A DNA stretch of 62,123 nucleotides, taken from Escherichia coli. GTDB taxonomy: Bacteria; Pseudomonadota; Gammaproteobacteria; Enterobacterales; Enterobacteriaceae. Each line of letters opens with the position of its first letter. Positions within the stretch are counted from its first letter, which is position 1. The notes below the pieces were generated by a model. That model did no database searches and had not been told where the DNA came from. It saw only the letters and a list, made by a program, of their open reading frames with translations. Positions 9,693 to 62,123 of this stretch are shown piece by piece. A program made the translations under genes and the position numbers. The stretch lies in NCBI RefSeq assembly GCF_003334815.1, contig NZ_QOWO01000026.1, one strand, 5' to 3'.

Positions 9693-12566
9693 ATGACACA
9701 GACGTTAAGCCAGCTTGAAAACAGCGGCGCTTTTATTGAACGCCATATCGGACCGGACGCCGCGCAACAGCAAGAAATGCTGAATGCCGTTGGTGCACAA
9801 TCGTTAAACGCGCTGACCGGCCAGATTGTGCCGAAAGATATTCAACTTGCGACACCACCGCAGGTTGGCGCACCGGCGACCGAATACGCCGCACTGGCAG
9901 AACTCAAGGCTATTGCCAGTCGCAATAAACGCTTCACGTCTTACATCGGCATGGGTTACACCGCCGTGCAGCTACCGCCGGTTATCCTGCGTAACATGCT
10001 GGAAAATCCGGGCTGGTATACCGCGTACACTCCGTATCAACCTGAAGTCTCCCAGGGCCGCCTTGAAGCACTGCTCAACTTCCAGCAGGTAACGCTGGAT
10101 TTGACTGGACTGGATATGGCCTCTGCTTCTCTTCTGGACGAGGCCACCGCTGCCGCCGAAGCAATGGCGATGGCGAAACGCGTCAGCAAACTGAAAAATG
10201 CCAACCGCTTCTTCGTGGCTTCCGATGTGCATCCGCAAACGCTGGATGTGGTCCGTACTCGTGCCGAAACCTTTGGTTTTGAAGTGATTGTCGATGACGC
10301 GCAAAAAGTGCTCGACCATCAGGACGTCTTCGGCGTGCTGTTACAGCAGGTAGGCACTACCGGTGAAATTCACGACTACACTGCGCTTATTAGCGAACTG
10401 AAATCACGCAAAATTGTGGTCAGCGTTGCCGCCGATATTATGGCGCTGGTGCTGTTAACTGCGCCGGGTAAACAGGGCGCGGATATTGTTTTTGGTTCGG
10501 CGCAACGCTTCGGCGTGCCGATGGGCTACGGTGGCCCACACGCGGCATTCTTTGCGGCGAAAGATGAATACAAACGCTCAATGCCGGGCCGTATTATCGG
10601 TGTATCGAAAGATGCAGCTGGCAATACCGCGCTGCGCATGGCGATGCAGACTCGCGAGCAACATATCCGCCGTGAGAAAGCGAACTCCAACATTTGTACT
10701 TCCCAGGTACTGCTGGCAAACATCGCCAGCCTGTATGCCGTTTATCACGGCCCGGTTGGCCTGAAACGTATCGCTAACCGCATTCACCGTCTGACCGATA
10801 TCCTGGCGGCGGGCCTGCAACAAAAAGGTCTGAAACTGCGCCATGCGCACTATTTCGACACCTTGTGTGTGGAAGTGGCCGACAAAGCGGGCGTACTGAC
10901 GCGTGCCGAAGCGGCTGAAATCAACCTGCGTAGCGATATTCTGAACGCGGTTGGGATCACCCTTGATGAAACAACCACGCGTGAAAACGTAATGCAGCTT
11001 TTCAACGTGCTGCTGGGCGATAACCACGGCCTGGACATCGACACGCTGGACAAAGACGTGGCTCACGACAGCCGCTCTATCCAGCCTGCGATGCTGCGCG
11101 ACGACGAAATCCTCACCCATCCGGTGTTTAATCGCTACCACAGCGAAACCGAAATGATGCGCTATATGCACTCGCTGGAGCGTAAAGATCTGGCGCTGAA
11201 TCAGGCGATGATCCCGCTGGGTTCCTGCACCATGAAACTGAACGCCGCCGCCGAGATGATCCCAATCACCTGGCCGGAATTTGCCGAACTGCACCCGTTC
11301 TGCCCGCCGGAGCAGGCCGAAGGTTATCAGCAGATGATTGCGCAGCTGGCTGACTGGCTGGTGAAACTGACCGGTTACGACGCCGTTTGTATGCAGCCGA
11401 ACTCTGGCGCACAGGGCGAATACGCGGGCCTGCTGGCGATTCGTCATTATCATGAAAGCCGCAACGAAGGGCATCGCGATATCTGCCTGATCCCGGCTTC
11501 TGCGCACGGAACTAACCCCGCTTCTGCACATATGGCAGGAATGCAGGTGGTGGTTGTGGCGTGTGATAAAAACGGCAACATCGATCTGACTGATCTGCGC
11601 GCGAAAGCGGAACAGGCGGGCGATAACCTCTCCTGTATCATGGTGACTTATCCTTCTACCCACGGCGTGTATGAAGAAACGATCCGTGAAGTGTGTGAAG
11701 TCGTGCATCAGTTCGGCGGTCAGGTTTACCTTGATGGCGCGAACATGAACGCCCAGGTTGGCATCACCTCGCCGGGCTTTATTGGTGCGGACGTTTCACA
11801 CCTTAACCTACATAAAACTTTCTGCATTCCGCACGGCGGTGGTGGTCCGGGTATGGGACCGATCGGCGTGAAAGCGCATTTGGCACCGTTTGTACCGGGT
11901 CATAGCGTGGTGCAAATCGAAGGCATGTTAACCCGTCAGGGCGCGGTTTCTGCGGCACCGTTCGGTAGCGCCTCTATCCTGCCAATCAGCTGGATGTACA
12001 TCCGCATGATGGGCGCAGAAGGGCTGAAAAAAGCAAGCCAGGTGGCAATCCTCAACGCCAACTATATTGCCAGCCGCCTGCAGGATGCCTTCCCGGTGCT
12101 GTATACCGGTCGCGACGGTCGCGTGGCGCACGAATGTATTCTCGATATTCGCCCGCTGAAAGAAGAAACCGGCATCAGCGAGCTGGATATTGCCAAGCGC
12201 CTGATCGACTACGGTTTCCACGCGCCGACGATGTCGTTCCCGGTGGCGGGTACGCTGATGGTTGAACCGACTGAATCTGAAAGCAAAGTGGAACTGGATC
12301 GCTTTATCGACGCGATGCTGGCTATCCGCGCAGAAATTGACCAGGTGAAAGCCGGTGTCTGGCCGCTGGAAGATAACCCGCTGGTGAACGCGCCGCACAT
12401 CCAGAGCGAACTGGTCGCCGAGTGGGCGCATCCGTACAGCCGTGAAGTTGCGGTATTCCCGGCAGGTGTGGCAGACAAATACTGGCCGACAGTGAAACGT
12501 CTGGATGATGTTTACGGCGACCGTAACCTGTTCTGCTCCTGCGTACCGATTAGCGAATACCAGTAA
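9693..12566 (+). CDS. gcvP: Glycine dehydrogenase (decarboxylating), P protein
   Basis: 957-aa PLP-dependent enzyme. Length and position match K-12 gcvP. Confidence 0.96.
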
Positions 12567-15110: not shown

Positions 15111-15422
15111 ATGCAGCCAAACGACATCACTTTTTTTCAACGTTTCCAGGATGACATTCTGGCTGGGCGTAAAACCATCACCATCCGCGACGAGTCTGAA
15201 TCGCACTTCAAAACGGGTGATGTGCTTCGTGTCGGACGTTTTGAAGATGACGGTTATTTTTGCACGATTGAAGTCACCGCAACCTCAACCGTAACGCTGG
15301 ATACGCTGACTGAAAAACATGCAGAGCAGGAAAATATGACCCTGACTGAACTGAAAAAAGTCATTGCTGACATCTATCCCGGTCAGACACAATTTTATGT
15401 GATTGAATTTAAATGTCTTTAA
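15111..15422 (+). CDS. yqfB: ASCH-domain protein YqfB (N4-acetylcytidine amidohydrolase)
   Basis: 103-aa protein matching YqfB, in the K-12 position. Confidence 0.85.
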
Positions 15423-16440: not shown

Positions 16441-17421
16441 TTACTCTTCGAGCGAATACGGCAGCGGCTCGATATGCAATGTATTCGCATCGTCGCGTAC
16501 GCGGAAGATGCTATCCGGTTCCATATCGTTATTCATGACGACCTGTACCACGACCTGACCATCTTCCAGTTTTACCGCAGCCAGTACCGTACCGGTACGA
16601 CGCCAGTTCTCGCCCATTTTCAGCTCTAAGTCTTCACCAGCTTCCGGCAGTCGGCTGGCGCTACCTGCCAGCAACCAGAGCGCACGTTTATTGGCACCAC
16701 GGAATTTTGCTCGCGCCACCATCTCTTGTCCGGTATAACAGCCTTTCTTAAAGCTGATACCGCCCAGCGCCTGGAGATTGGTCGCCTGTGGGATAAACTG
16801 CCCGCTGTTGGCGGCATCAATCACCGGGAAACCCGCTTCAATGTTTAATGCCAGCCACTGTTGGCTATTGTTCAGTTCCGCTTCACCGCGCAGTTTATCG
16901 GTCAGCATATTAGCAGTAGCTTCATCGGTTACGATCAGGAAACGTTCTGCCGGGTGTTCAAACCATAGCAAAGTGGTCGCGCCTTCTTTGACTACCTGTT
17001 TTTCTTTCGAAGGCAGTTCGCTAAAGAGATTTGCCAGCGCGGCGCGCGCCTGAAAACCGGCAACACCAAGCAGCACACGCTCGTCGTCTGGCGCGATGGT
17101 CACTTTAGAGAATACCGCATATTTTTTCAGTTCAGTCAGCTGCGGTTCACGCACGCTGCGCCGTTCAATCCATGCAAAGCCATCGCCGTCGCGGAACAGA
17201 CGTAAATTGCTCCACATTTTACCTTTGGCGTCGCAATGGGCGGCGAGCAGGTGCTGATCTTCTGCCATCTGGCTGACATCTGCTGTCACCTGACCCTGCA
17301 TATATTTTTCGCTGTCCGCGCCAGTAATGGTGGCAAGCGCCCAGTCATCAAGCGTCATCAGCGTCAGCGGTAAACGGGCAGAAGCCGTAGGCTGACGGGG
17401 AGGAAAAGGTGTAAAAGCCAT
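16441..17421 (-). CDS. ygfZ: Folate-binding tRNA-modifying protein YgfZ
   Basis: 326-aa protein of the GcvT-like fold. It is on the same strand as bglA, and its neighbours match K-12. Confidence 0.9.
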
Positions 17422-48758: not shown

Positions 48759-49970
48759 TTACTCTGTTGCCAGCCAGCTTAACGGGATTGCAGCGTACAT
48801 CGCGGCACAGGTCACCAGGTGAGATTTCCAGGTTTTTTCGTTAGGTGCATGCGCTTCAGGTTCTTTACCCGGGCCAAAGCCGATCACCGGAATGCCGTGA
48901 CGGCCCATGATAGATACGCCGTTAGTTGAGAAGGTCCACTTATCAACAACCGGCGCTTTGCCAAACAGCCCTTCGTAGGCATTCACCAGTGCTTTAACGG
49001 TGAAGTGATCTTCTTCCACTTTCCAGGTCGGGAAGTAGCATTCGGTTGGGTAAACCAGGCCAGTCCAGGACGGACGGTCGTAGTTGTACATAGAAACAAC
49101 CGCGTTAGCTTTCTGTACTGCAGGCAGGGCGCGGATTTCGTCCAGCGCGCCTTCCCAGGTTTCGCCCCAGGTCAGACGACGGTCGATTGAAACTGCGCAG
49201 CTGTCTGCTACAGCGCAACGGCTTGGGGATGTGAAGAAGATTTCAGAAACGGTGAGGGTGCCTTTGCCGAGGAATTCGTCATAACCCAGACGTTGGGAGA
49301 GTTCTTGTAATTCGCCAAGAATCGGACCCATTTTGAAAATGGCGTTATCACCGCGTTCTGGTGCAGAACCGTGGCAGCTAACACCCTGAACATCAATACG
49401 AATTTCCATACGACCGCGCTGACCACGGTATACCTGGCAGTCGGTTGGTTCGGTACTGACCACAAATTCCGGGCGAATGCCGGATTGTTCAATAATGTAC
49501 TGCCAGCACAGACCGTCGCAGTCTTCTTCCTGCACCGTACCGGTAACCAGCAGGGTATATTCATCTTCCAGACCGAGGTCTTTAATGATTTTACCGGCAT
49601 AAACCATAGAGGCCATGCCACCTTCCTGGTCGGAAGTACCGCGACCACCAATCAGTTCATCAGTTTCCATGCCTTCGTACGGATCGAAGTCCCAGTTTTT
49701 GATGTTGCCAATGCCGACGGTATCGATATGAGCGTCCATTGCCACCAGACGCGGGCCGTGGCCGATATAACCGAGAACGTTGCCCATCGGGTCGATTTCA
49801 ACTTTATCGAAGCCGACTTTTTCCATCTCTTCTTTAATACGATGTACTACGCGTTTCTCGTCGCAGCTTTCACTGGGAATAGCAACCATGTCGCGCAGGA
49901 AGCGAGTCATATCCGCCTGGTAATCTTTTGCTTTTTCAAGAATCAGTTTGAATGGAATATTCTTAGCCAT
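48759..49970 (-). CDS. ygeY: M20 family peptidase/deacylase
   Basis: 403 aa with ArgE/DapE-like motifs. Confidence 0.85.
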
Positions 49971-50027
49971 TATTTTTCTCCAGATTTTTTACTCCCCGTT
50001 TTGCAGGGAGCAGTTCCAATAGGGTGA

Positions 50028-51224
50028 TTAAGGTGCTACAGCGTGTTTGCCTTCCCAGACAACTTCGCGGTAGTGCTTCACGTCGGTGTCGCCTTCAGTG
50101 CTGATAACCAGCACCACGGCATCTTTGTTCAGCGCCAGTTTTTCCATCAGGCTTTGACGTTGCGGGTGATAATGAACCGCTGCGAGAACGCCCAAACCGA
50201 CAGCGCCGGATTCACCGGAGATGATGCGCGGGTCGTTGCCGTACGGATTACCCAGCACGCGCATACCTAATGCGGCAACGCTGTCCTGGCAGGAGATGAA
50301 TTGGGTGGCGCAGTTACGTAGGATTTCCCAGCCCAGCGGGTTAGGTTCGCCACAGGCCAGGCCTGCCATGATGGTGGCCATATCACCGCCAACGTTGACG
50401 ATGTCGCCTTTGACGCCGGAGCGATAAATACAGTCAGCTTTGTCAGGTTCAACAATAATGCTGTGCAGATTTTGCGGGCTATAGACGTCGACCAGATAAC
50501 CCAGCACACCACCGGCCATTGCTCCGACACCGGCTTGCAGCAGAACGTGCGTCGGGGTTACGCCCATTTCACGCATTTGCTCGACGGCTTCATCTGCCAG
50601 GGTTGCGTAGCCTTGCATGATCCAGGTTGGGATTTTGGTGTAACCTTCCCATGCCGTGTCCTGTACCACTTCCCAGCCGTGCTGCTGCGCGTGTTGCATG
50701 GTCAGGCGAACGGTATCGTCATAGTTCATATCCGTGACGATGCACTCGGCACCGAGGTTCAGAATGGCGTCAACGCGTTCCTGAGCAGAACCTTTCGGCA
50801 TGTAAATCACCGCATTCTGTCCGAGTTGCTGTGCTGCCCACGCCACACCGCGCCCGTGGTTGCCGTCGGTGGTGGTCGCGAAAGTCATTTTTTCGCCGAT
50901 GGCATTTTTCAGGTGCTCAAATGACAGCGTTTCGATATCAAGATGATATTTTTCACACAATAATTGAGCGATGGCGTACGCACCGCCAAGCATTTTGAAG
51001 GCGTTCAGACCGAATCGTTTTGATTCGTCTTTGACGAGAATTTTCTTCACACCAAAAAGGTTTGCGAGATCGTCCAGCGCACAAAGCGGTGTTGGGCGAT
51101 AACCAGCTATTTTCTGGTGGAACTGGCGCGCCAGTTTGGCCTGGCTTTGCGAAAAGAGCGGTGATGTTTCGCCGTTGAAAAATTTGTTATCGGCGATATC
51201 AATCTTCAATGAGAAAACGGACAT
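50028..51224 (-). CDS. ygeX: PLP-dependent diaminopropionate ammonia-lyase
   Basis: 398 aa with a tryptophan synthase beta-like fold. The PLP lysine lies within FGLNAFKMLGG. Confidence 0.88.
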   Translation of the reverse strand: MSVFSLKIDIADNKFFNGETSPLFSQSQAKLARQFHQKIAGYRPTPLCALDDLANLFGVKKILVKDESKRFGLNAFKMLGGAYAIAQLLCEKYHLDIETLSFEHLKNAIGEKMTFATTTDGNHGRGVAWAAQQLGQNAVIYMPKGSAQERVDAILNLGAECIVTDMNYDDTVRLTMQHAQQHGWEVVQDTAWEGYTKIPTWIMQGYATLADEAVEQMREMGVTPTHVLLQAGVGAMAGGVLGYLVDVYSPQNLHSIIVEPDKADCIYRSGVKGDIVNVGGDMATIMAGLACGEPNPLGWEILRNCATQFISCQDSVAALGMRVLGNPYGNDPRIISGESGAVGLGVLAAVHYHPQRQSLMEKLALNKDAVVLVISTEGDTDVKHYREVVWEGKHAVAP

Positions 51225-51281
51225 ATCCTATCCTTTTGGCCTCTGGAAATAGAGGGCCGACCAGCTGATCGGCCCGAGGGG

Positions 51282-52472
51282 TTATTTCACGCGTTCTTGC
51301 GCTTCTTTCAGCAGTTGCTCGAGCAGTGCACCTGGTTTGGCGTATTTACGGGACAGGATCATCGCGGCGATGATATAAGGCTTCCAGCTGGCTTCTTTGT
51401 AGGTAGCGATACGGTATTTTTCGAATACGCCTTCAGTCACTTCACCTTCTTTACAGGATACGCCGCTGATATCAGCTGGCAGGCAGTGCATGTACAGGGC
51501 TTCGCCATCACGGGTCAGTTCCATCATCTCTTCAGTACAATGCCAGTCTTTGTGTTGCGCGTTCTGTGCCAGACACTGTTTTTCCAGTGCTTTTAAGCCT
51601 TCGTGATCGTTCGCACGCAGCAATTCAGTACGCTCTTCCATCACTTTGTAAGGTGCCCATGACTTCGGATAAACGATGTCTGCGTCTTTGAAGGCTTCTT
51701 CCATGCTGGTGACCTGACGGAAGCTACCACCGGAGGCTTTAGCATTGTTTTTCGCCACTTCAACCACATCCGGGATCAGGTCGTAGCCTTCCGGATGGGC
51801 CAGGGTGACATCCATACCGAAGCGAGTCATCAGACCGATGATGCCTTGTGGTACAGAGAGCGGTTTGCCATAGCTTGGAGAGTAGGCCCAGGTCATGGCG
51901 ATTTTTTTACCTTTCAGGTTTTCCAGTGAACCAAAGTGTTCACGTAACCACGCGAGGTCAGCCATTGACTGAGTCGGGTGGTCAATATCGCATTGCAGGT
52001 TCACTAAAGCCGGACGCTGTGGCAGTACACCCTGCTTGTAACCGTCATCAAGTGCAGCGCCAACTTCACGCATATAGGCGTTGCCTGCGCCCAGATACAT
52101 ATCGTCGCGAATACCAATAGCGTCGGCGCAGAAGGAGATCATATTGGCGGTTTCACGCACGGTTTCGCCGTGAGCGATTTGTGATTTGCCTTCGTCGAGA
52201 TCTTGTTGTGCAAGGCCGAGCAGGTTAAGCGCGGAAGCATAAGAGAAGCGGGTACGGGTGGAGTTGTCGCGGAATACGGAAATACCTAATCCACTATTAA
52301 AGACTTTGGTTGAGATGTTTTCAGCACGCAGTGCTTTTAATGCTGCGGCAACGTCCAGTACTTGTTTCAGTTCATCTGGCGTCTGTTCCCACGTTAACAA
52401 AAAATCTTTCTCGTGAAGGTGAGAGGTCAGCGAATTGATATCCTTAATCAGCTCATTAACAGTTTTCATCAT
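51282..52472 (-). CDS. ygeW: Carbamoyltransferase (OTC/ATC-like; oxamate/unknown-substrate transcarbamylase)
   Basis: 396 aa with the STRTR carbamoyl-phosphate binding motif and the HCLP motif. Confidence 0.88.
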   Translation of the reverse strand: MMKTVNELIKDINSLTSHLHEKDFLLTWEQTPDELKQVLDVAAALKALRAENISTKVFNSGLGISVFRDNSTRTRFSYASALNLLGLAQQDLDEGKSQIAHGETVRETANMISFCADAIGIRDDMYLGAGNAYMREVGAALDDGYKQGVLPQRPALVNLQCDIDHPTQSMADLAWLREHFGSLENLKGKKIAMTWAYSPSYGKPLSVPQGIIGLMTRFGMDVTLAHPEGYDLIPDVVEVAKNNAKASGGSFRQVTSMEEAFKDADIVYPKSWAPYKVMEERTELLRANDHEGLKALEKQCLAQNAQHKDWHCTEEMMELTRDGEALYMHCLPADISGVSCKEGEVTEGVFEKYRIATYKEASWKPYIIAAMILSRKYAKPGALLEQLLKEAQERVK

Positions 52473-52562
52473 AAAGTCCCGGTAGTGGAATGACAGGCAA
52501 AGTGGTTTATTTCACTGTGACTTGCCAAAGTGATTGGTGTTTTCACAGCTATACCTGGGACT

Positions 52563-52578
52563 AACAATAAGTGTGCCA
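52563..52578 (-). promoter_or_regulatory. Candidate sigma54 (-24/-12) promoter for the ygeW-ygeX-ygeY-hyuA-yqeA operon
   Basis: On the minus strand, cTGGCACacttaTTGTt has a perfect -24 TGGCAC, but the -12 element is TTGT rather than TTGC. It lies about 95 nt upstream of the ygeW ATG and is divergent from the sigma54 activator gene ygeV. Confidence 0.4.
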
Positions 52579-52947
52579 GAATTATCCGCGCGGCTGCAAA
52601 AGACTAATTTGACGGATAATGTGTGGGGTTGATCACAAATTGATGCCAGCTTCTGGTTGTTTGTAAAATACGAAAACGTTTGGCTTTTTTTATCGCGTTA
52701 TTTATTTGCTGCTAAGTATCAGAAATAAGATAAAGGGGCAGGCTATCTCTCTTCAGTTTGATAAACTCACCGCCGTAATTCTCATATTGATATAGAAATG
52801 TGATATCTCTTCCATAATTTCATTAGAAAATGATAAAAATCTTATGTTTTTATCAAAGCCAATTTCGCCTGAGTTAATATCATCATGATCTGTGAACCAT
52901 CAACGTCTTCAATGATCGACTTTTAAGTAAGTCTGGAAGGTAAAGCT

Positions 52948-54726
52948 ATGGAGCTTGCTACTACGCAGTCAGTATTGATGCAAATTCAACCGACAATTCA
53001 GCGTTTTGCCAGAATGCTTGCCAGCGTTTTGCAGCTTGAGGTTGAGATCGTTGATGAAAACTTGTGTCGCGTTGCCGGAACGGGCGCGTATGGGAAGTTT
53101 CTTGGTCGCCAGTTGAGCGGCAACTCACGCCTGCTCCGCCACGTCCTGGAAACGAAAACTGAAAAAGTTGTGACACAGTCTCGCTTCGATCCCCTTTGCG
53201 AAGGTTGCGATAGTAAAGAAAATTGCCGCGAAAAAGCATTTCTGGGTACGCCTGTCATTTTACAGGATCGTTGTGTTGGGGTGATAAGTTTGATTGCCGT
53301 TACCCACGAGCAACAAGAGCATATCAGTGATAATTTACGCGAATTTTCTGATTATGTTCGCCATATATCCACCATTTTTGTTTCGAAACTTCTGGAGGAT
53401 CAGGGGCCAGGAGATAACATCAGTAAAATATTTGCGACCATGATCGATAATATGGATCAGGGCGTATTAGTTGTAGATGATGAAAATCGGGTTCAGTTTG
53501 TTAATCAGACTGCCTTAAAAACACTTGGTGTTGTGCAAAATAATATTATTGGGAAACCTATCCGTTTCAGACCATTAACATTTGAGAGTAATTTTACCCA
53601 TGGACATATGCAGCATATTGTTTCATGGGACGATAAAAGTGAATTAATCATTGGTCAATTGCATAACATTCAGGGCCGACAATTATTTTTAATGGCGTTT
53701 CACCAATCGCATACCAGTTTTTCTGTAGCAAATGCACCTGATGAACCGCATATTGAACAATTGGTTGGCGAGTGCCGTGTTATGCGGCAATTAAAACGAC
53801 TCATTAGCCGTATTGCACCCAGCCCATCCAGCGTTATGGTGGTTGGTGAAAGCGGCACGGGTAAAGAAGTCGTCGCCCGTGCAATCCATAAGTTGAGCGG
53901 AAGACGGAATAAACCCTTTATTGCTATCAACTGTGCCGCGATTCCGGAGCAGCTTCTGGAGAGCGAACTGTTCGGTTATGTTAAAGGTGCATTTACTGGC
54001 GCTTCTGCCAACGGTAAAACAGGGTTGATTCAGGCGGCGAATACGGGCACGCTGTTTCTCGATGAAATAGGTGATATGCCATTAATGTTGCAGGCTAAAT
54101 TACTGCGCGCTATTGAGGCACGTGAAATTCTGCCGATTGGTGCCAGTAGCCCAATACAAGTCGACATTCGCATCATTTCTGCAACTAATCAGAATTTGGC
54201 CCAGTTCATTGCCGAAGGTAAATTCCGCGAAGATCTCTTCTACCGACTTAATGTTATCCCGATAACTCTGCCACCGCTGCGTGAACGTCAGGAAGATATT
54301 GAACTATTGGTGCATTACTTTTTACATCTGCATACCCGTCGTCTGGGATCGGTTTATCCTGGCATTGCTCCCGATGTCGTCGAAATATTGCGTAAGCATC
54401 GTTGGCCCGGAAACCTGCGCGAGTTAAGCAATTTGATGGAATATCTGGTTAACGTGGTTCCTTCAGGTGAAGTTATCGACAGCACGCTATTGCCGCCAAA
54501 TCTGCTGAATAATGGCACAACGGAGCAAAGTGATGTAACAGAGGTCAGTGAGGCGCACCTGTCACTCGATGATGCGGGCGGCACGGCGCTGGAGGAGATG
54601 GAAAAGCAAATGATCCGCGAGGCGCTTTCACGTCATAACAGCAAGAAGCAAGTTGCTGATGAACTGGGCATCGGCATTGCTACGCTCTATCGCAAGATTA
54701 AGAAATATGAGTTGTTAAACACATAA
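52948..54726 (+). CDS. ygeV: Sigma54-dependent transcriptional activator (bacterial enhancer-binding protein)
   Basis: 592 aa with the AAA+ Walker A motif GESGTGKE, the GAFTGA sigma54-contact motif and a C-terminal HTH. Confidence 0.92.
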   Translation: MELATTQSVLMQIQPTIQRFARMLASVLQLEVEIVDENLCRVAGTGAYGKFLGRQLSGNSRLLRHVLETKTEKVVTQSRFDPLCEGCDSKENCREKAFLGTPVILQDRCVGVISLIAVTHEQQEHISDNLREFSDYVRHISTIFVSKLLEDQGPGDNISKIFATMIDNMDQGVLVVDDENRVQFVNQTALKTLGVVQNNIIGKPIRFRPLTFESNFTHGHMQHIVSWDDKSELIIGQLHNIQGRQLFLMAFHQSHTSFSVANAPDEPHIEQLVGECRVMRQLKRLISRIAPSPSSVMVVGESGTGKEVVARAIHKLSGRRNKPFIAINCAAIPEQLLESELFGYVKGAFTGASANGKTGLIQAANTGTLFLDEIGDMPLMLQAKLLRAIEAREILPIGASSPIQVDIRIISATNQNLAQFIAEGKFREDLFYRLNVIPITLPPLRERQEDIELLVHYFLHLHTRRLGSVYPGIAPDVVEILRKHRWPGNLRELSNLMEYLVNVVPSGEVIDSTLLPPNLLNNGTTEQSDVTEVSEAHLSLDDAGGTALEEMEKQMIREALSRHNSKKQVADELGIGIATLYRKIKKYELLNT

Positions 54727-54735
54727 CCTCAGTGA

Positions 54736-54759
54736 ATCCGGCCTGAATTCAGGCCGGAT
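54736..54759. terminator. Bidirectional terminator between convergent ygeV and xdhC
   Basis: atccggcctgaattcaggccggat forms a perfect palindrome and is flanked by T-runs. Confidence 0.75.
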
Positions 54760-54765
54760 ATCCTT

Positions 54766-55245
54766 TTACTTCGTTTTCTCGCAATCCAGAACTGTATTTA
54801 CAATCATCTGATACCCCGTGCAGCGACAAAGATTTCCCGCCAGTCCGCGACGAATTTCCGTAATGGTTAATGGCTTCTCGCGTGGTTTCGCCAGCATTGC
54901 CGTGGTAGCCATAATCAGGCCAGGCGTACAAAACCCGCACTGCACTGCGCCGGATTTCGCATAAGCCTGCTGAACATGAGAAAGTTTTCCGCCTTTCGCT
55001 TCACCTTCCAGCGTGCGGATCTCTTTTCCTTCAGCCCAGGCGGCAAGGTATAAGCAACTGTCTATTGCTGTGCCGTCGACCAACACCGTACAGGCACCAC
55101 ATTCACCCACGCAGCACCCTTGTTTGACACTTAGCAGTCCTTGTTCGCGGAGTAATTCCGAGAGCGGCGTGCCTGGTGCGGCGTGAAGCTGAAAAGGCAT
55201 CCCGTTAATGGTGCATTCGATGGTAATTGTTTCGCTGTGATTCAT
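54766..55245 (-). CDS. xdhC: Xanthine dehydrogenase Fe-S subunit (2x 2Fe-2S)
   Basis: 159 aa carrying the CxxGxCGxC and C..C motifs. Confidence 0.9.
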
Positions 55246-56120
55246 TGCAATTTTCCCCCCGCCGCGGCGACGGCTTCGCTAATCACTTTTTTGGTCATCG
55301 TCTGGATGAGATGCAGACGAAACTCTTTACTGGCCCGCCATGAAGAACGCGGGGCGACATCTTGCAGGACAGATTCGCTGATAGCTTCCAGCGTTTGCAG
55401 GTTTAATGGCGCATTTTGTGCAGTCTGTTCGGCATGTTGGCAGCGAATCGGCGTTGGCGCGGCAACACCAAATGCCAGGCGTAATTCGCTGAAATTGCCG
55501 TTATCCAGTCGGCAATGTGCGGCGCAGCCAATCGTTGAAATATCCATTGCGTCGCGCATGGCATATTTAAAATGCGCGCTGCCCGCGTGTTCTTTCGGCT
55601 GTGGCGGAAAATGAAAGGCGACGAGGATTTCGTCATGCTCAAGAGACACTTTGCCCGGCCCGGTGTGAAAGCCATTAATCGGGACGAAACGAACACCGCG
55701 CGGGGAGTGGATCTCCAGTTTCGCGTCATAAATTAGCGTTGGCGTGGCAGAATCTGCGCTGGTGGCACCGTTGCAAATATTTCCACCGTAGGTAGCGACG
55801 TTACGGATCTGCGGTCCAGCAATGGACGTGGCCGCAGCACATAACGCCGGGAGATGACGTTGAGTTATAGGATCTTCTATTAGCTGGGTAAATGTCGTTG
55901 CAGAGCCGATACGTAGCGAGCCATCTTCCGCCAGCGTAATTCCCCGCAGCTCCGCCAGATTATGAATATCAACAATATGGCGATAACGGTCATTGTGATG
56001 GTGGAGCTGAATCAGTACGTCAGTGCCACCGGCGAGCAGTTTGGCCTGCGGGTTGTCAGCCAGCAGGTTGATGGCATCGGCAAGGGTTGCTGCGCGATGG
56101 TAAGAAGCAAAATCAAACAT
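55242..56120 (-). CDS. xdhB: Xanthine dehydrogenase FAD-binding subunit
   Basis: 292 aa with a CoxM-like fold. It overlaps the xdhC start by 4 nt. Confidence 0.9.
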
Positions 56121-56130
56121 GATGTTATCC

Positions 56131-58389
56131 TCAAATCAATCCTGCCAGATGGAACTCTTCATATAACCGTTTTGGCGTCAGCGGCAGTGTATTGATTGCA
56201 ACACCGGTAGCCATCTTCACCGCGTTACGAATAGCAGCGGCAACAGGAATTATTGGTGGCTCACCCAGTGACTTATGTCCGTATGCGGATTGCGGCTCAT
56301 TGATTTCGACGAACGCGCTTTCCAGTTGTGGCAGATCCGGCATGGTCGGCATTTTGTAATCCAGCAGATTGGGGTTACGGACCACGCCGCTTTTAGCATC
56401 GATGATCATCTCTTCAAATAGCGCCCAGCCAATGCCCATTCCCATTCCGCCGTGTACCTGACCTTCTGCCAGCAGTGGATTAAGAATATGCCCTGAATCA
56501 TGAACGTTGAGGATGCGGTTGATGGTGACTTTGCACAGCGCAATATCGACCGTCAGATCAACAAAGGTACAGCCAAACGCCGGTGGGTTAGTGGTGGTTT
56601 TGATGGAGCTTTCAGCAGAGAGCTGCCCGCCGCGTTCAGGGTGGTAGAAAGCGTCCATCGCCAAATCTTTTAACGACATTAACGGCTCTTCCGGTCGTTC
56701 AACCAGCACGATATGGCCTTTTATCAGGGTCAGATTCATCGCTGACTGATGTAGCATGACTGCGGCGTGAGCGATGATTTTCTCTTTTAATAATAGTGCC
56801 GCACTGCGCAGCGCAGGCGCGGCAACATAGCTCTGGCGTGAGGCAAATGCGCCGGGATCGAACGGCGTAACGTCGGTATCTTGAGTTGAAATAACGCGAA
56901 CGTCGCTGACCGGAACCCCCACGGTTTCTGCCACCATTTGCGAGAAGACGGTGTCGGCACCCTGACCGATTTCCGTCGCGCCGCTTTGCACGTTGATGGT
57001 TCCATCCTGATTCATCAGAAGGCGCGCGCCTGCTATTTCTACGCCGACAGGCCAGGTGTTAGAGGTGTAGCTAAAACAGGCGACGCCAACGCCGCGGCGC
57101 AAATTGCCTTGCTGGTTCTGGCATTCTGCACGGCGTTTTTCCCATTCAAAGATTTTCCGGCCTTTTTCAAGACACTCCGGCAACCCTGCGCTGTAAATAC
57201 GTTTGCCCGTGAGCGGATTAGCATCTCCTTCGCGGGCGGCGTTGCGTAAACGAATTTCAACAGGATCAATACCTAACGCTGTCGCGGCGTCATCAAGCAT
57301 AGACTCAACGGCAAATACGACTTGTGGCGCGCCATAACCACGCATCGCACCAGCCGAGGGGAGGTTGGTATAGCAGGTCTTTGAACTGTAAGCGTAGGCA
57401 CAACGAGGATAAAGGTAAGCGACTTTATTCCCCCCCGCAGAAGCGATGGAGTGCCCGTGAGATGCATAAGCGCCGGTGTTAGACAGAACATCCAGACTAT
57501 AACCTTTCAATGTTCCGTCGCGGTTCACGCCCATTTGCCCGTCAATGGTAAAAGCGTGGCGGGTACGGGTTGCGAGGAAACACTCTTCACGGCTAAGGGA
57601 AACTTTCACCGGAATGCCGCCAAGCTTGCTGGTCAGGAATGCCGCCATTGGCTCTTCCAGTACATCCTGTTTATTACCAAAACCGCCACCGACAAATGGT
57701 TTGATGACTCGTACGCATGACCAGGGAATATCCAGCGCCTGACCAACCACGCGGCGAACAATGTGCGGGATCTGGGTGCTGGAAACGATGGTAATTCGCG
57801 AGTCATCCTCCATCCACGCCAGCGATGTTACGCTTTCCATGTGACAATGTTGAATAACGGGGGTCTGATAGTGCCCCTGTACCTGGTAGTCGGCGGCATC
57901 GATTGTTTGTTGGACATTACCCGTCGACATCGTGCTTTGTTTCAGTAAATTGCCACCGTTATGGATTGGTGCAGCGTCTTCTGCCAGCGCCGCTTCTGGC
58001 GTGGTGATAACGGGTAATTCTTGCCACTCAATGCTGACCAATTGCGCCGCTTTTTCTGCCGTGAGTTCATCGCGGGCCACGACGATGGCAACGGCGTCAC
58101 CATGATGACGAACATGGCGAGTTAGCAGTGCGCGATCGGCGGTATCGCGCTTGTTTTCGTCAAGTGTCCAGGCATGCCCAGCTGTAGCGAATGGAATATC
58201 AGGCACATCTTCCCAGGTAAAAATCGCCAGTACGCCCGGCAAACTTCTGGCTTGTTCATCATTAATACTTACGGCATAACCATGTGCGATAGGGCTACGT
58301 ACATATTTCGCATAACACATGCCCGCCATAACATAATCGTCAGTATATCGTGCCCGCCCGGTGACCTTAGCAATGGCATCGACGCGCAT
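56131..58389 (-). CDS. xdhA: Xanthine dehydrogenase molybdopterin-binding subunit
   Basis: 752 aa from MRVDAIAKVTGRARYTDD. The ORF track extends it by 13 codons. Confidence 0.9.
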   Translation of the reverse strand: MRVDAIAKVTGRARYTDDYVMAGMCYAKYVRSPIAHGYAVSINDEQARSLPGVLAIFTWEDVPDIPFATAGHAWTLDENKRDTADRALLTRHVRHHGDAVAIVVARDELTAEKAAQLVSIEWQELPVITTPEAALAEDAAPIHNGGNLLKQSTMSTGNVQQTIDAADYQVQGHYQTPVIQHCHMESVTSLAWMEDDSRITIVSSTQIPHIVRRVVGQALDIPWSCVRVIKPFVGGGFGNKQDVLEEPMAAFLTSKLGGIPVKVSLSREECFLATRTRHAFTIDGQMGVNRDGTLKGYSLDVLSNTGAYASHGHSIASAGGNKVAYLYPRCAYAYSSKTCYTNLPSAGAMRGYGAPQVVFAVESMLDDAATALGIDPVEIRLRNAAREGDANPLTGKRIYSAGLPECLEKGRKIFEWEKRRAECQNQQGNLRRGVGVACFSYTSNTWPVGVEIAGARLLMNQDGTINVQSGATEIGQGADTVFSQMVAETVGVPVSDVRVISTQDTDVTPFDPGAFASRQSYVAAPALRSAALLLKEKIIAHAAVMLHQSAMNLTLIKGHIVLVERPEEPLMSLKDLAMDAFYHPERGGQLSAESSIKTTTNPPAFGCTFVDLTVDIALCKVTINRILNVHDSGHILNPLLAEGQVHGGMGMGIGWALFEEMIIDAKSGVVRNPNLLDYKMPTMPDLPQLESAFVEINEPQSAYGHKSLGEPPIIPVAAAIRNAVKMATGVAINTLPLTPKRLYEEFHLAGLI

Positions 58390-58483
58390 GCATGATTCAC
58401 CCGTAGCGGTTGCTTCCCGCGCTTCCATAGAAATCCCCTCGATTTGAACATTTGGTTCTTATGGCAAAGATTTAGTCTAAGCA

Positions 58484-58500
58484 GGCAAGATTTACGCCAG
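58484..58500 (-). promoter_or_regulatory. Candidate sigma54 (-24/-12) promoter for xdhABC
   Basis: On the minus strand, cTGGCGTaaatcTTGCc has the conserved GG and GC with the canonical spacing. It lies about 95-110 nt upstream of the xdhA ATG. Confidence 0.4.
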
Positions 58501-58842
58501 AAACGACGATAAGCGTTAGGGGAGGTAGGAAGTGTGATGACGTTAAAAAAACACAGATATGATACGAAACAGGACTCTGAATAGGGGCAGTGATACGTAT
58601 CAATATGAGTGGCGATAAAATCAATGTGATAAATTGGGATTATTACGCATCAGGATGGGAAATAGGGTAAAAAGTCAGGAAGTTCGATACCTCTACAGCG
58701 AATATTTTGCTGATGATACTTCCCTTTGCCAAATGAAATTAACCTCTTTCTCTATTACCACGTTTTTCCAGAAGCAAGAGATTGGGTATCAAGAGGCTGG
58801 CTGCTATGATAAGGCGTCTTGTTTTTTAAGCGAGGAAAGATT

Positions 58843-59598
58843 TTGAGTGCGGGACGCCTGAATAAAAAATCTCTGGGTATCGTGATGTTGTTATCGGTTG
58901 GACTGCTTTTGGCGGGCTGTTCGGGTAGCAAATCATCCGATACAGGAACGTATTCCGGCTCCGTTTACACCGTGAAACGGGGGGATACGCTATATCGTAT
59001 TTCGCGCACCACGGGAACCAGCGTAAAAGAACTGGCGCGACTGAACGGCATTTCCCCCCCTTACACCATTGAAGTTGGTCAGAAACTAAAACTGGGTGGG
59101 GCGAAAAGTAGCAGTATTACACGTAAATCAACCGCCAAATCAACGACCAAAACCGCATCGGTTACACCGTCATCAGCGGTACCGAAATCATCCTGGCCGC
59201 CAGTAGGGCAACGTTGTTGGTTATGGCCAACGACAGGGAAAGTTATCATGCCGTATTCGACAGCAGATGGCGGCAATAAAGGGATTGATATCTCAGCTCC
59301 ACGGGGTACACCTATTTACGCCGCGGGTGCAGGAAAGGTGGTGTATGTGGGCAACCAGCTGCGTGGCTACGGTAATCTCATCATGATTAAACACAGTGAA
59401 GATTACATTACGGCTTACGCCCATAATGACACGATGCTGGTAAATAATGGGCAAAGCGTGAAGGCTGGGCAAAAAATCGCCACTATGGGGAGCACGGATG
59501 CGGCATCTGTTCGCCTGCATTTCCAGATTCGTTACCGTGCAACGGCAATTGATCCGCTACGTTACTTGCCGCCTCAGGGCAGCAAGCCAAAATGCTGA
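58843..59598 (+). CDS. ygeR: LysM / M23-peptidase lipoprotein (TTG start)
   Basis: 251 aa from (L)SAGRLNKKSLGIVMLLSVGLLLAGCSG, with a lipobox, a LysM domain (YTVKRGDTLYRISR) and an M23 HxH motif. Confidence 0.85.
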   Translation: MSAGRLNKKSLGIVMLLSVGLLLAGCSGSKSSDTGTYSGSVYTVKRGDTLYRISRTTGTSVKELARLNGISPPYTIEVGQKLKLGGAKSSSITRKSTAKSTTKTASVTPSSAVPKSSWPPVGQRCWLWPTTGKVIMPYSTADGGNKGIDISAPRGTPIYAAGAGKVVYVGNQLRGYGNLIMIKHSEDYITAYAHNDTMLVNNGQSVKAGQKIATMGSTDAASVRLHFQIRYRATAIDPLRYLPPQGSKPKC

Positions 59599-59631
59599 TG
59601 GCGAATTAATCAGCAGTCAGCAGCGTGGCAC

Positions 59632-59658
59632 TTGCTAAGGAGAGCGTAAGGTTTATAA
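59632..59658 (+). promoter_or_regulatory. sigma70 promoter of glyU (-35 TTGCTA, -10 TATAAT)
   Basis: cTTGCTAaggagagcgtaaggttTATAATg sits 18-20 nt upstream of the mature tRNA 5' end. Confidence 0.6.
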
Positions 59659-59675
59659 TGCCTTACGCATCTCGA

Positions 59676-59750
59676 AGCGGGCGTAGTTCAATGGTAGAAC
59701 GAGAGCTTCCCAAGCTCTATACGAGGGTTCGATTCCCTTCGCCCGCTCCA
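59676..59750 (+). tRNA. glyU: tRNA-Gly (anticodon CCC)
   Basis: GCGGGCG acceptor stem, cuUCCCAag anticodon loop, GGTTCGATTCC T-arm, CGCCCGC-T-CCA 3' end. Confidence 0.92.
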
Positions 59751-59864
59751 TGACACTTCTTAAAGTATTCCAACTTACTGAATCCTAAGGGATATGGCTT
59801 AACGCCTCCTTGCAGAGTTACTTACTGTAACCCACTGTGTAACCCTCTCAGGGCATACAGACAT

Positions 59865-61511
59865 ATGATTCAGCTATCCAGCAGTCACAAACTTCCAGCC
59901 GTCTCCTATCTCTACCAGCGTAACGGCGTCTACTACTTCCGTCTTCGGGTCAGACAATCAAACAATGATAGAATGACCTCAATATCATTACGGACCAAGG
60001 ATAGACGCACCGCTATGGCTCACTCAAGGCACATCAAGGCAGCACTCAAGGCAATACACGCAGACAGACCCAACGCTACCTATGAGGAAATGAGGGAGCA
60101 CCTTAAGGACATCGCTGAGTGTGAACTGTCTATGGGCCGTTCAGATCTCTTTGAGCCTGACATGAGGGATATCTACCGGGACCAATACGGAGAACTTGGT
60201 GAGAGCCTTACCGATGCTCTGGCTAGTGAGCCGCTAAGTATTGACCAGCATCGTTACATCAATGAGGCCCTGAAGGTGCTAAAAGCCTGCATGAGGCGTA
60301 TCGAAGCGGGAGACAGTCAGCCTCTGATAGATTACGTCGATCATTTTAATGATATTGATAGGCAAGATAGCCAAGTAGCCTCTGTGTCCCTATCTGTTAA
60401 TGCTCCAGAAGTAAAACCAGAAGTAAAACCAGAAGTAAAACTAGAAGTAAAACCAGAAGTTACGCCTAGCATTACCATAGCGAGCCTCTTTGAGCAATAC
60501 GAAGCGGAGAATTATCAGAACTGGAAGCCTGCAACCTTAAGGGAAAACAAGGCGTCACACGCTGCGTTAATCGAAATATTCGACCATCTGGGTCTCAATG
60601 CAGACGCTAACAGGGCTGACATGCTTAAGGTCCGTGATGTGCTCCAGCAGTTACCTAGGAACCGTAAGCAGCGCTTCAAGGATGCCCCACTTGCTGACCT
60701 GTTGAGCCGTGAAGATAAGACAGATTGTCTGGATGTCGTTACCATCAACAACAAGTATCTTATTAAGATGGCTGCTGTCTTTAGGTGGGCTGTGCGCAAT
60801 GACTTGATTAAAAAGAACATGACTGAGGGTCTGGAGCTTAAAGTCCCTCAGCGTAAAGCCTCAGGGGCCCGTAACGCCTTCTCTACGGAGCAGGTGGGGC
60901 AACTACTGGTCGCAGCTAAGGCATACTCTCAGAAGACCTCTGGTAAGCCCTACCACTATTACGTTACGGCTTTGGCTGCTATCACTGGGGCGAGACTCAA
61001 TGAAATAGCCCAACTACAGGTCAAAGACGTCAGGACCACTGAGGCGGGAACCGTTTATATTCATATCAATGAAGACGATAGTAGTCTACCCGGTAAGAGC
61101 ATCAAGAACGCTCATAGTGACCGCTGTGTGCCTCTGGTCGATGGGGCCTATGGTTTTATATTGGCTGACTTTATGAGGTTGGTTGAGACCCGTAGAGGCG
61201 CTGATGGTGATGACGCTATGGTGTTCGATGGTCTTCGCCTCATGAAGAACGGTTACGGTGAGCAGGTGAGTAAATGGTTTAATCGGACGTTGTTGCCTAA
61301 AGTCCTCGCAGATCGTAGCGGCTTAGCGTTTCACTCGTTTAGACATACAGTTGCGACCCAGTTAAAACAACATGGGGTCGAGTTGGCGTATGCACAGGCG
61401 ATCATGGGGCATAGTTCAGGGTCTATTACTTACGACCGTTATGCTAAAGAGGTTGAGGTTGATAGGCTGGTCAATGTGATGGCTGATGTTTATAAGGAGA
61501 TTGTGGGGTAA
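59865..61511 (+). CDS. Tyrosine-type integrase of a genomic island inserted next to tRNA-Gly (N-terminal arm-type domain, PEVK-repeat linker, C-terminal catalytic domain)
   Basis: 548 aa. The N-terminus (SYLYQRNGVYYFRLRV) is typical of island/phage integrase arm-binding domains. The C-terminus has R (TGARLNE), HSFRHT and Y (ITYDRYAK) catalytic motifs. It starts 115 nt after the tRNA 3' end. Confidence 0.85.
   Translation: MIQLSSSHKLPAVSYLYQRNGVYYFRLRVRQSNNDRMTSISLRTKDRRTAMAHSRHIKAALKAIHADRPNATYEEMREHLKDIAECELSMGRSDLFEPDMRDIYRDQYGELGESLTDALASEPLSIDQHRYINEALKVLKACMRRIEAGDSQPLIDYVDHFNDIDRQDSQVASVSLSVNAPEVKPEVKPEVKLEVKPEVTPSITIASLFEQYEAENYQNWKPATLRENKASHAALIEIFDHLGLNADANRADMLKVRDVLQQLPRNRKQRFKDAPLADLLSREDKTDCLDVVTINNKYLIKMAAVFRWAVRNDLIKKNMTEGLELKVPQRKASGARNAFSTEQVGQLLVAAKAYSQKTSGKPYHYYVTALAAITGARLNEIAQLQVKDVRTTEAGTVYIHINEDDSSLPGKSIKNAHSDRCVPLVDGAYGFILADFMRLVETRRGADGDDAMVFDGLRLMKNGYGEQVSKWFNRTLLPKVLADRSGLAFHSFRHTVATQLKQHGVELAYAQAIMGHSSGSITYDRYAKEVEVDRLVNVMADVYKEIVG
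60405..60461 (+). repeat. Intragenic 12-bp tandem repeat (ccagaagtaaaa, about 4.75 copies) encoding (PEVK)n in the integrase
   Basis: ccagaagtaaaaccagaagtaaaaccagaagtaaaactagaagtaaaaccagaagtt. Confidence 0.9.
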
Positions 61512-61631
61512 CCAAGCTGTCCACCCCCGGGGAGATTTGCCTTGAGGATGACCATAGTCGATGACCATATTGCTACAGGCCTGTGTGGTCATGTTTTTGA
61601 CTCACGGTTTTCACTACTTGTCAAGGATTTC

Positions 61632-61654
61632 TAATACGACTCACTATAGAGAGA
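61632..61654 (+). promoter_or_regulatory. Near-consensus bacteriophage T7 RNA polymerase promoter (copy 1): TAATACGACTCACTATAG|AGAGA, with predicted +1 G at 61649
   Basis: Positions -17 to +1 match the T7 consensus TAATACGACTCACTATAG at 18 of 18. The +2 to +6 region is AGAGA against consensus GGAGA. The specificity positions -12 to -8 are T7-like (CGACT), not T3-like or SP6-like. Confidence 0.7.
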
Positions 61655-61769
61655 AGGGACACAAAAAGTTTTCTCTCTTTCTCTCTCTTCTAGGACACTT
61701 GCTACTACTACTACAGGCCTGTGTGGTCATGTTTTTGACTCACAGTTTTCACTACTTGTCAAGGATTTC

Positions 61770-61792
61770 TAATGCGACTCACTATAGAGAGA
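61770..61792 (+). promoter_or_regulatory. T7-type promoter (copy 2): TAATGCGACTCACTATAG|AGAGA, with predicted +1 G at 61787
   Basis: This is the second copy of the tandem repeat. It differs from copy 1 by a single mismatch, A to G at -13. Confidence 0.6.
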
Positions 61793-61858
61793 AGGGACAC
61801 AAAAAGTTTTCTCTCTTTCTCTCTCTTCTAGGACACTTGCTACTACTACTACAGGTAG

Positions 61859-61888
61859 CTCTAACTCTAACTCTAACTCTAACTCTAA
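61859..61888 (+). repeat. Hexanucleotide microsatellite (CTCTAA)5, followed by a degenerate ccgtaa unit; (TAC)4 lies just upstream in each 138-bp unit
   Basis: ctctaactctaactctaactctaactctaa. Confidence 0.9.
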
Positions 61889-62046
61889 CCGTAACTTATC
61901 GCATCCTTTCAGGGGCGGGATGACCAATTACAGACACCAAGCGTTCTACTTAAAGTGAATGCTTCCTGTGTGCTCTGGGTCAGTCGATAAGTGAATAGCA
62001 ATAGACATCATATTAAATATGGTCTCTACCCTACAGGGGCTTAACT

Positions 62047-62123
62047 CTGATGAATCCCCTAATGATTTTGGTAAAAATCATTAAGTTAAGGTGGATACAC
62101 ATCTTGTCATATGATCAAATGGT
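62047..62123 (+). mobile_element. Terminal 77 bp of an IS10 end (IS4 family, Tn10-type). The element continues beyond the window.
   Basis: ctgatgaatcccctaatgattttggtaaaaatcattaagttaaggtggatacacatcttgtcatatgatcaaatggt matches, from memory, the IS10 outside-end sequence that precedes the transposase start. The 9 bp immediately before it (ggcttaact) resemble the IS10 target consensus NGCTNAGCN. Confidence 0.7.

Follow-up and report, generated by a model that had tools for sequence, protein, structure and literature searches.

Why does the gene for a tyrosine integrase carry a short tandem repeat in the middle of its reading frame, and does the number of repeat units make a difference to the enzyme? 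This question is raised by a 62,123-nt stretch of Escherichia coli DNA (contig NZ_QOWO01000026.1), referred to in the following as the window, near the end of which an integrase gene (int) and the remnant of a genomic island lie next to a tRNA-Gly gene. A preliminary description of this DNA had noted about five in-frame copies of a 12-bp repeat in int and proposed that their number might vary between isolates. The repeat is real, and its copy number does vary. Very probably, it is a genuine in-frame polymorphism that arises stepwise, by slippage or unequal exchange, in a disordered tether and has little functional consequence; as biology, a polymorphic repeat in the disordered linker of an enzyme of known class is ordinary.

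The 12-bp repeat and its linker

The array occupies positions 60405–60464 on the plus strand and encodes PEVK-PEVK-PEVK-LEVK-PEVT, residues 181–200 of the integrase, whose translation contains SVNAPEVKPEVKPEVKLEVKPEVTPSIT. The first three units are CCAGAAGTAAAA x3 (60405–60440). The fourth, CTAGAAGTAAAA (60441–60452), referred to here as the CTA unit, carries a C-to-T change that gives LEVK, and the fifth is CCAGAAGTTACG (60453–60464). Tandem Repeats Finder reported the array at 60405–60460 with a period of 12, 4.7 copies, 95% matches and a score of 105, the highest of any short-period array in the 62-kb window. When up to three mismatches were allowed, the period-12 self-match extended over 46 nt, compared with a mean of 14 and a maximum of 19 in 100 composition-preserving shuffles of the window. 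The 12-mer did not recur elsewhere in the island. The count of about five in-frame units given in the preliminary description was thus upheld by Tandem Repeats Finder, by parsing of the individual units and by the shuffles, and the repeat is confirmed as non-random.

An AlphaFold2 model of the integrase, built from 50 homologues, had a mean predicted local distance difference test (pLDDT) score of 80. There is a single long coil of low confidence in this model (residues 169–204), and the repeat falls within it: pLDDT was below 50 at residues 169–200, with blocks at 32–39 across residues 171–200 compared to 83–97 in the flanks, and DSSP assigned coil to residues 172–204. We therefore delimit a predicted disordered interdomain linker at residues 172–204 (60378–60476, plus strand), as the earlier proposal of a disordered linker had anticipated. 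On its N-terminal side, residues 1–171 (59865–60377, plus strand) form a module that was modeled as a three-stranded sheet plus helix (residues 12–66) followed by four long helices up to residue 171, and that has a match to DUF6538. On its C-terminal side follow a core-binding domain (residues 205–335) and a catalytic domain (residues 341–544), together encoded by 60477–61496 on the plus strand, modeled mostly at pLDDT 85–97 and assigned by Foldseek and by PHROG 1. The repeat had been described as lying between the N-terminal DNA-binding region and the catalytic domain. The interdomain position stands, but the linker does not lead directly into the catalytic domain; it joins the core-binding domain, whose helices start at residue 205. 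When 1.8 billion representatives were searched exhaustively, most of the distant homologues aligned only from query residues ≈190–220 onward, just past the repeat, which therefore marks a domain boundary.

Copy number among homologues and its explanation

Alignment of homologues bore out the proposed variation between isolates, since integrases that are 94–100% identical contain 2, 3, 4 or 5 units. Alleles were tabulated from 134 close homologues, taking the linker as the segment between LSV(N/S)A and (A/T)SLF. The two-unit allele (PEVKPEVTPSIT) is found in a cluster of 769 members dominated by S. flexneri, in several E. coli and in three IMG/VR loci (L088, L089 and L092). Three units (PEVKPEVKPEVTPSIT) are present in most E. 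coli, including two loci that carry intact islands, L001 (strain 21AR0133) and L006. A four-unit allele that includes the CTA unit (PEVKPEVKLEVKPEVTPSIT) belongs to the protein P0126 (WP_340511419.1), encoded by locus L005, and the five-unit allele (PEVKPEVKPEVKLEVKPEVTPSIT), the longest found, is that of the window alone; a megablast search with the repeat region matched only three records among 5,426 complete E. coli genomes and did not recover it. The alleles share units of identical DNA sequence, which is consistent with recent duplication and not with convergent selection on the protein.

The last step of the series can be followed in a near-isogenic pair. Window positions 49865–61714 align with L005 (E. 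coli contig JBBPGO010000018.1) over 11,850 columns at 99.89% identity, and over these 11.85 kb the two differ by a single mismatch and a single 12-nt gap, the latter corresponding to exactly one CCAGAAGTAAAA unit. Outside this indel, the window integrase is 100% identical to P0126. The CTA unit, common to both alleles, shows that the five-unit allele arose from the four-unit allele by gain of a single unit.

We propose that an ancestral two-unit PEVK-PEVT sequence provided the foothold for replication slippage or unequal exchange, and that DNA-identical units would then have been gained singly, from two to three, to four (with the C-to-T change that gives LEVK) and to five. Every added unit would contribute four residues and keep the frame. 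The tether is predicted to connect the N-terminal module, a probable binder of arm-type sites, to the core-binding and catalytic domains of a heterobivalent-type integrase. A segment made of Pro, Glu, Val and Lys should adopt an extended, unstructured form, so that copy number would alter only how far the two DNA-binding parts can lie from each other, and variation in unit number is probably neutral or nearly so. Proline-rich repeat spacers are known from the PEVK region of titin, the Glu-Pro/Lys-Pro segment of TonB and the linkers of lipoyl domains. The integrase repeat resembles these in composition, in its expected extended and unstructured behavior and in changing by whole units, but it is not homologous to them, has only 2–5 units and sits inside a recombinase.

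More distant homologues suggest that the linker readily accommodates change. In integrases with 82–88% identity, which come from Klebsiella, Serratia, Citrobacter, Yersinia and further E. coli islands, the linkers are not homologous and measure 8–20 residues; examples are PEVKPAALAALAVTPSVT, PEVKPVVAPSADTTSSVT, PQELSIPEGKSSIT and PEVNPGVT. Across homologues of several genera the length ranges from 8 to 24 residues, and an unrelated AALAALA stretch occurs in Klebsiella. Judging from these alignments, the linker is a hotspot at which both length and sequence change, and it tolerates such change.

A further question is how general the repeat is. It had been called atypical for phage-type integrases, and indeed none of 150 family representatives (clusters at 50% identity) had a linker peptide repeat with a period of at least 3 and at least 3 copies; the peptide-repeat scan returned only trivial dipeptide matches and two unrelated cases. 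The further suggestion that it might serve as a marker for the integrase family did not survive, since it is confined to an E. coli/Shigella sub-lineage, while Klebsiella, Serratia and others have unrelated linkers. Conversely, (PEVK)3–19 arrays encoded by exactly CCAGAAGTAAAA, with at least three perfect units, were found in 33 unrelated metagenomic and viral contigs from JGI metagenomes and IMG/VR (L096–L128), and none of these repeat proteins was an integrase. The array is thus a recurrent proline-rich spacer motif and not an integrase signature. Inside the one E. coli/Shigella island lineage, the repeat could be used as a fine-scale typing marker, and the series of two to five units offers natural alleles for asking how tether length affects bridging between arm and core sites.

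Several observations weigh against a purely neutral, slippage-driven account. Slippage as the mutational route is our inference, and unequal recombination would fit equally well. The start of the linker stays PEVK-like across genera (PEVK, PEVN or SEVK), hinting at some constraint on the first residues. Finally, the four- and five-unit alleles sit in a lineage in which the island has been cut to about 2.6 kb. Since the longest alleles are those of a reduced island, their added units may owe more to loosened constraint on a redundant integrase than to tolerance in a working one.

Taken further, this last point becomes a separate explanation, in which the expansion to four and five units is drift in a dispensable enzyme after the island cargo was lost and IS10 was inserted. 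The L005 island of ≈2.6 kb retains just int and the promoter region, with the right attachment site (attR) at 12447, and the window copy is interrupted at 62047 by IS10, whereas the intact islands at L001 and L006 have three units. However, the window ORF (open reading frame) is intact, with all catalytic residues present and complete identity to P0126 outside the indel, and variation between two and three units also exists, with the three-unit form in those same intact islands. The sample is too small for unit number to be correlated with island integrity. We consider relaxed constraint rather unlikely as the explanation.

It is improbable that linker length has been selected to set the distance bridged between arm sites and core, with the unit numbers as functionally distinct alleles. 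In lambda Int, the N-terminal domain and its linker control core cleavage allosterically. The window integrase appears to be of the arm-plus-core type, candidate arm-site pairs are kept on both arms about 70–105 bp from the core, and linker length differs systematically by genus over the 8–24-residue range, all of which would suit such tuning. Against this, alleles with two, three, four and five units coexist in one species in near-identical backgrounds with identical arm-site spacing, the longest of them belong to a decayed island, and nothing was found to covary with unit number.

That the array works as DNA, whether as a set of binding sites, an iteron or a slippery template of the island, and codes for PEVK only incidentally, is highly improbable: the noncoding part of the island is rich in tandem repeats (periods of 6, 8, 9, 10, 11–13 and 138 bp) and the copy number of its promoter unit varies too, but the array is strictly in frame, its 12-mer is confined to it within the island, and relatives with different DNA still encode a Pro/Val/Ala-rich peptide at the linker position. 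Inflation of the unit number by an assembly or sequencing artefact is just as hard to credit, for although the exact 548-residue five-unit protein is absent from ≈15 billion protein sequences, the 60-bp array is shorter than any read, many independent assemblies contain it with two, three or four units, and the CTA variant is also present in L005.

The integrase and its attachment sites

The window is E. coli chromosome, with xdhABC, ygeV and the actS/ygeR region followed by a tRNA-Gly gene with anticodon CCC (59677–59750, plus strand; ARAGORN; Rfam tRNA, 71.6 bits), the integration target. The 18 bp at the 3' end of this gene, TTCCCTTCGCCCGCTCCA (59733–59750, plus strand), form the core of the left attachment site (attL), and a second copy of the 18-bp core is found at the far end of the related islands (L005, 9869 and 12447; L001, 15134 and 22476; L003, 9829 and 16233). 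Since direct repeats of 18 bp bound the islands and a circular form exists (described below), there is indirect evidence that the integrase carries out site-specific recombination.

The int gene (59865–61511, plus strand) is an intact ORF encoding 548 residues, assigned as a tyrosine integrase by Pfam, by its catalytic residues and by Foldseek. The Phage_integrase family (PF00589) matched residues 341–528 at 2.1e-18 (67.1 bits, against a cut-off of 27.1), and the integrase family PHROG 1 matched residues 196–530 at 1.7e-45. In a 50-sequence alignment, the catalytic residues R377, K414, H490 and R493 were invariant, and H516 and Y526 were conserved in at least 90% of the sequences. The best Foldseek match in the PDB was Tn1549 Int (1.6e-7, over its residues 82–397), and Cre and XerH were matched with a probability of 1.0. 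Tn1549 Int is also the nearest solved structure by sequence, with an E-value of only 2e-3. By these comparisons, the protein is a tyrosine recombinase with a core-binding and catalytic fold, and the enzyme looks intact.

In the N-terminal module, the DUF6538 match covers residues 15–63 (8.4e-6) and, at 25.8 bits, falls 1.2 bits under the Pfam cut-off of 27. The N-terminal domains of the lambda and Tn916 integrases have a topology like that modeled for residues 12–66, and arm-type DNA binding by the N-terminus is therefore plausible. The attL arm contains a direct pair of TGTAACC heptamers, with a spacing of 12 bp, just 5' of the int start codon (59826–59844, plus strand; at 59826 and 59838), about 93–105 bp inside attL. 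A TGTAACC pair with equal spacing is found 70–82 bp inside attR in islands of E. coli and Klebsiella and, in part, of Proteus. We suggest that these pairs are candidate arm-type sites on both attachment arms. The pair upstream of int might also be an autoregulatory site.

Altogether, the enzyme resembles the heterobivalent integrases lambda Int and Tn916/Tn1549 Int in its C-terminal core-binding and catalytic fold with the R-K-H-R-H-Y residues, in a small N-terminal domain of three-stranded sheet plus helix on a flexible linker (in the window protein, according to the AlphaFold2 model), and in the use of a tRNA 3' end as target with repeated candidate sites on both arms. It differs from them in being far larger (548 residues versus about 350–400), with an extra helical region of ≈100 residues after the N-terminal domain and a linker of about 35 residues with repeat polymorphism. 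Moreover, its N-terminal domain is nearest to DUF6538, below the cut-off, and not to the named Arm-DNA-bind families.

The neighboring island

The main value of the PEVK finding is that it points to the neighboring island; the repeat itself matters little. Downstream of int, the window contains a 138-bp tandem repeat of 2.1 copies (61573–61855, plus strand; Tandem Repeats Finder score 552). Each copy includes one T7 RNA polymerase promoter directed away from int, TAATACGACTCACTATAGAGAGA at 61632–61654 and TAATGCGACTCACTATAGAGAGA at 61770–61792, both on the plus strand. Compared with the –17 to +6 consensus TAATACGACTCACTATAGGGAGA, the two match at 18 of 18 and 17 of 18 positions from –17 to +1, with a G-to-A change at +2. 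With up to two mismatches allowed, the window gave these two matches, whereas 100 shuffles gave none, and exact 23-mer T7 promoters are present in L001 and L003. The window promoters would thus be expected to be transcribed by a phage RNA polymerase. The 138-bp unit is itself a second copy-number polymorphism, with one copy in the near-isogenic L005 and one to three in relatives.

The intact relatives are 6.2–6.4-kb tRNA-Gly islands bounded by the 18-bp tRNA repeat. Intact islands were delimited at 15134–22493 in L001, 9829–16250 in L003, 8844–15296 in L008 (K. pneumoniae ATCC 13883) and 8882–15059 in L014. Their gene order is int, in some cases a PD-T7-4/RAZR defence gene, a noncoding stretch of about 1.1 kb that holds one to four T7-group promoters and AT-rich CTTAAAG repeats, a Rha/Ant-like gene, a small ORF, a DUF6971 gene, and a gene for a 373-residue protein. 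The last was predicted to have an HK97 capsid/encapsulin fold (model pLDDT 71); searches of the 373-residue and DUF6971 proteins against Pfam, PHROGs, PADLOC and NCBIfam gave nothing but DUF6971 itself. The window copy is without the capsid-like gene and retains int, the two promoters and IS10.

The promoters differ by host genus. Those of the E. coli islands match the T7 consensus exactly, while the Klebsiella islands have the T7 type together with AATTAGGGCACACTATAGGG, of the K11 type, and AATTAGGTAGCACTATAGGGAGA. The Proteus islands have AATTAACCCACACTATAGGGAG, and the Edaphovirga and Citrobacter islands further variants. The Klebsiella sequence AATTAGGTAGCACTATAGGGAGA matches 262 phage genomes, including 254 Klebsiella phages and a further 5 named Przondovirus, with 10–12 sites per genome among the matches listed, and the Proteus sequence AATTAACCCACACTATAGGGAG is identical to promoters of T7-like Vibrio phages, which have 12–15 sites per genome. 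When the island noncoding DNA was compared by blastn with 50,697 phage genomes, the promoters alone matched, and the same was true of a short-word comparison with T7 positions 1–6600. Any resemblance to a phage origin or packaging site therefore rests on organization and composition, not on alignment.

Two contigs point to an excised state. The 6,628-nt metagenomic contig L130 (ENA ERZ27247387 k141_403532) has a terminal overlap of 141 nt, implying a circle of about 6.49 kb, and in the circularly permuted contig L131 the capsid-like gene is followed by int. Both would be explained by an excised circular or concatemeric form of the island.

Based on these features, we suggest tentatively, as a possibility of somewhat less than even weight, that these undescribed islands of ≈6.3 kb at tRNA-Gly are satellites or abortive decoys of T7-like phages, with the window as a decayed copy. 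The specificity region of the promoters would correspond to the T7-like phages that infect each genus, with the T7 type in E. coli islands and a combination of T7, K11 and Przondovirus types in those of Klebsiella, and the AT-rich CTTAAAG-repeat region past the promoters resembles promoter-primed replication origins of T7. The polymerase of an infecting phage would then activate the island and might also prime replication of it. Under such a scheme the PEVK repeat would be one of several slippage-prone repeats, with no special function. Host-matched promoters, a gene with a predicted capsid fold and a circular contig hint at possible helper-dependent induction, replication and packaging, and the islands are a strong lead for a candidate satellite or decoy.

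No description of a T7-promoter island or satellite of this kind was found in a non-exhaustive search of the literature. Small phage satellites such as the capsid-forming PICI, SaPI with Ccm and PICMI differ from these islands, which have no terminase, portal or primase genes and whose expression signals are promoters for T7-group single-subunit RNA polymerases, of the types found in T7-like phages that infect the host. If the suggestion is confirmed, the exact T7 promoters (and the Klebsiella-phage promoters in Klebsiella) would amount to direct sensing of infection by a T7-like virulent phage, and the islands would represent a novel type of satellite, belonging to a phage group that is not known to have any. 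Such sensing would serve a mobile element or a defence island alike, and in some strains the island houses RAZR/PD-T7-4.

An example of the latter is the Klebsiella locus L003, where a gene at 11628–12266, with a stop/start overlap with int, matches DUF4145 and, in PADLOC, PD-T7-4 at 2.5e-101. Its position between int and the promoters suggests a defence-cargo site, which in the window is empty. RAZR/PD-T7-4 is a published anti-T7 abortive-infection RNase (Vassallo et al. 2022, PMC9519451; RAZR paper, Nature 2026, PMC13017515), and the former paper states of PD-T7-4 that it "often overlaps an integrase gene". Those passages of the two papers that matched a search by term are silent on the integrase linker, on T7 promoters and on the remainder of the island. 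The integrases that overlap the gene in Klebsiella are about 87% identical to that of the window, whose island differs in having no RAZR gene, with the promoters directly after int.

Beyond the promoters, a noncoding block at 61886–62046 (plus strand), AACCGTAACTTATCGCATCCTTTCAGGGGCGGGATGACC ... GGTCAGTCGATAAGTGAATAGC ... CTACAGGGGCT, is conserved across genera in an alignment of seven islands from E. coli, Klebsiella, Rouxiella and RIT691. The consensus fold of this block contains a long-range inverted repeat of 10 bp, ACTTATCG...CGATAAGT, in which one change is compensatory. A long-range stem with a single compensatory change was too little to call a structured RNA, and the call was rejected; Rfam returned only the tRNA and the IS10 RNA-OUT on 59600–62123. 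Possible roles of the block are those of an RNA element, an origin or a packaging site.

The window resembles L005 as far as 62046, and the remaining sequence (62047–62123, plus strand), the outer end of IS10, is inserted in the island remnant and runs off the window. The Rfam match to RNA-OUT, the IS10 antisense RNA, lies on the minus strand at 62092–62123 (E-value 2e-4) and is cut by the window end. Short tandem repeats are dense in the noncoding DNA of the islands, as illustrated by (CTCTAA)5 at 61859–61889 in the window and by arrays with periods of 9, 10, 11–13 and 36 bp at 16900–18000 in L001.

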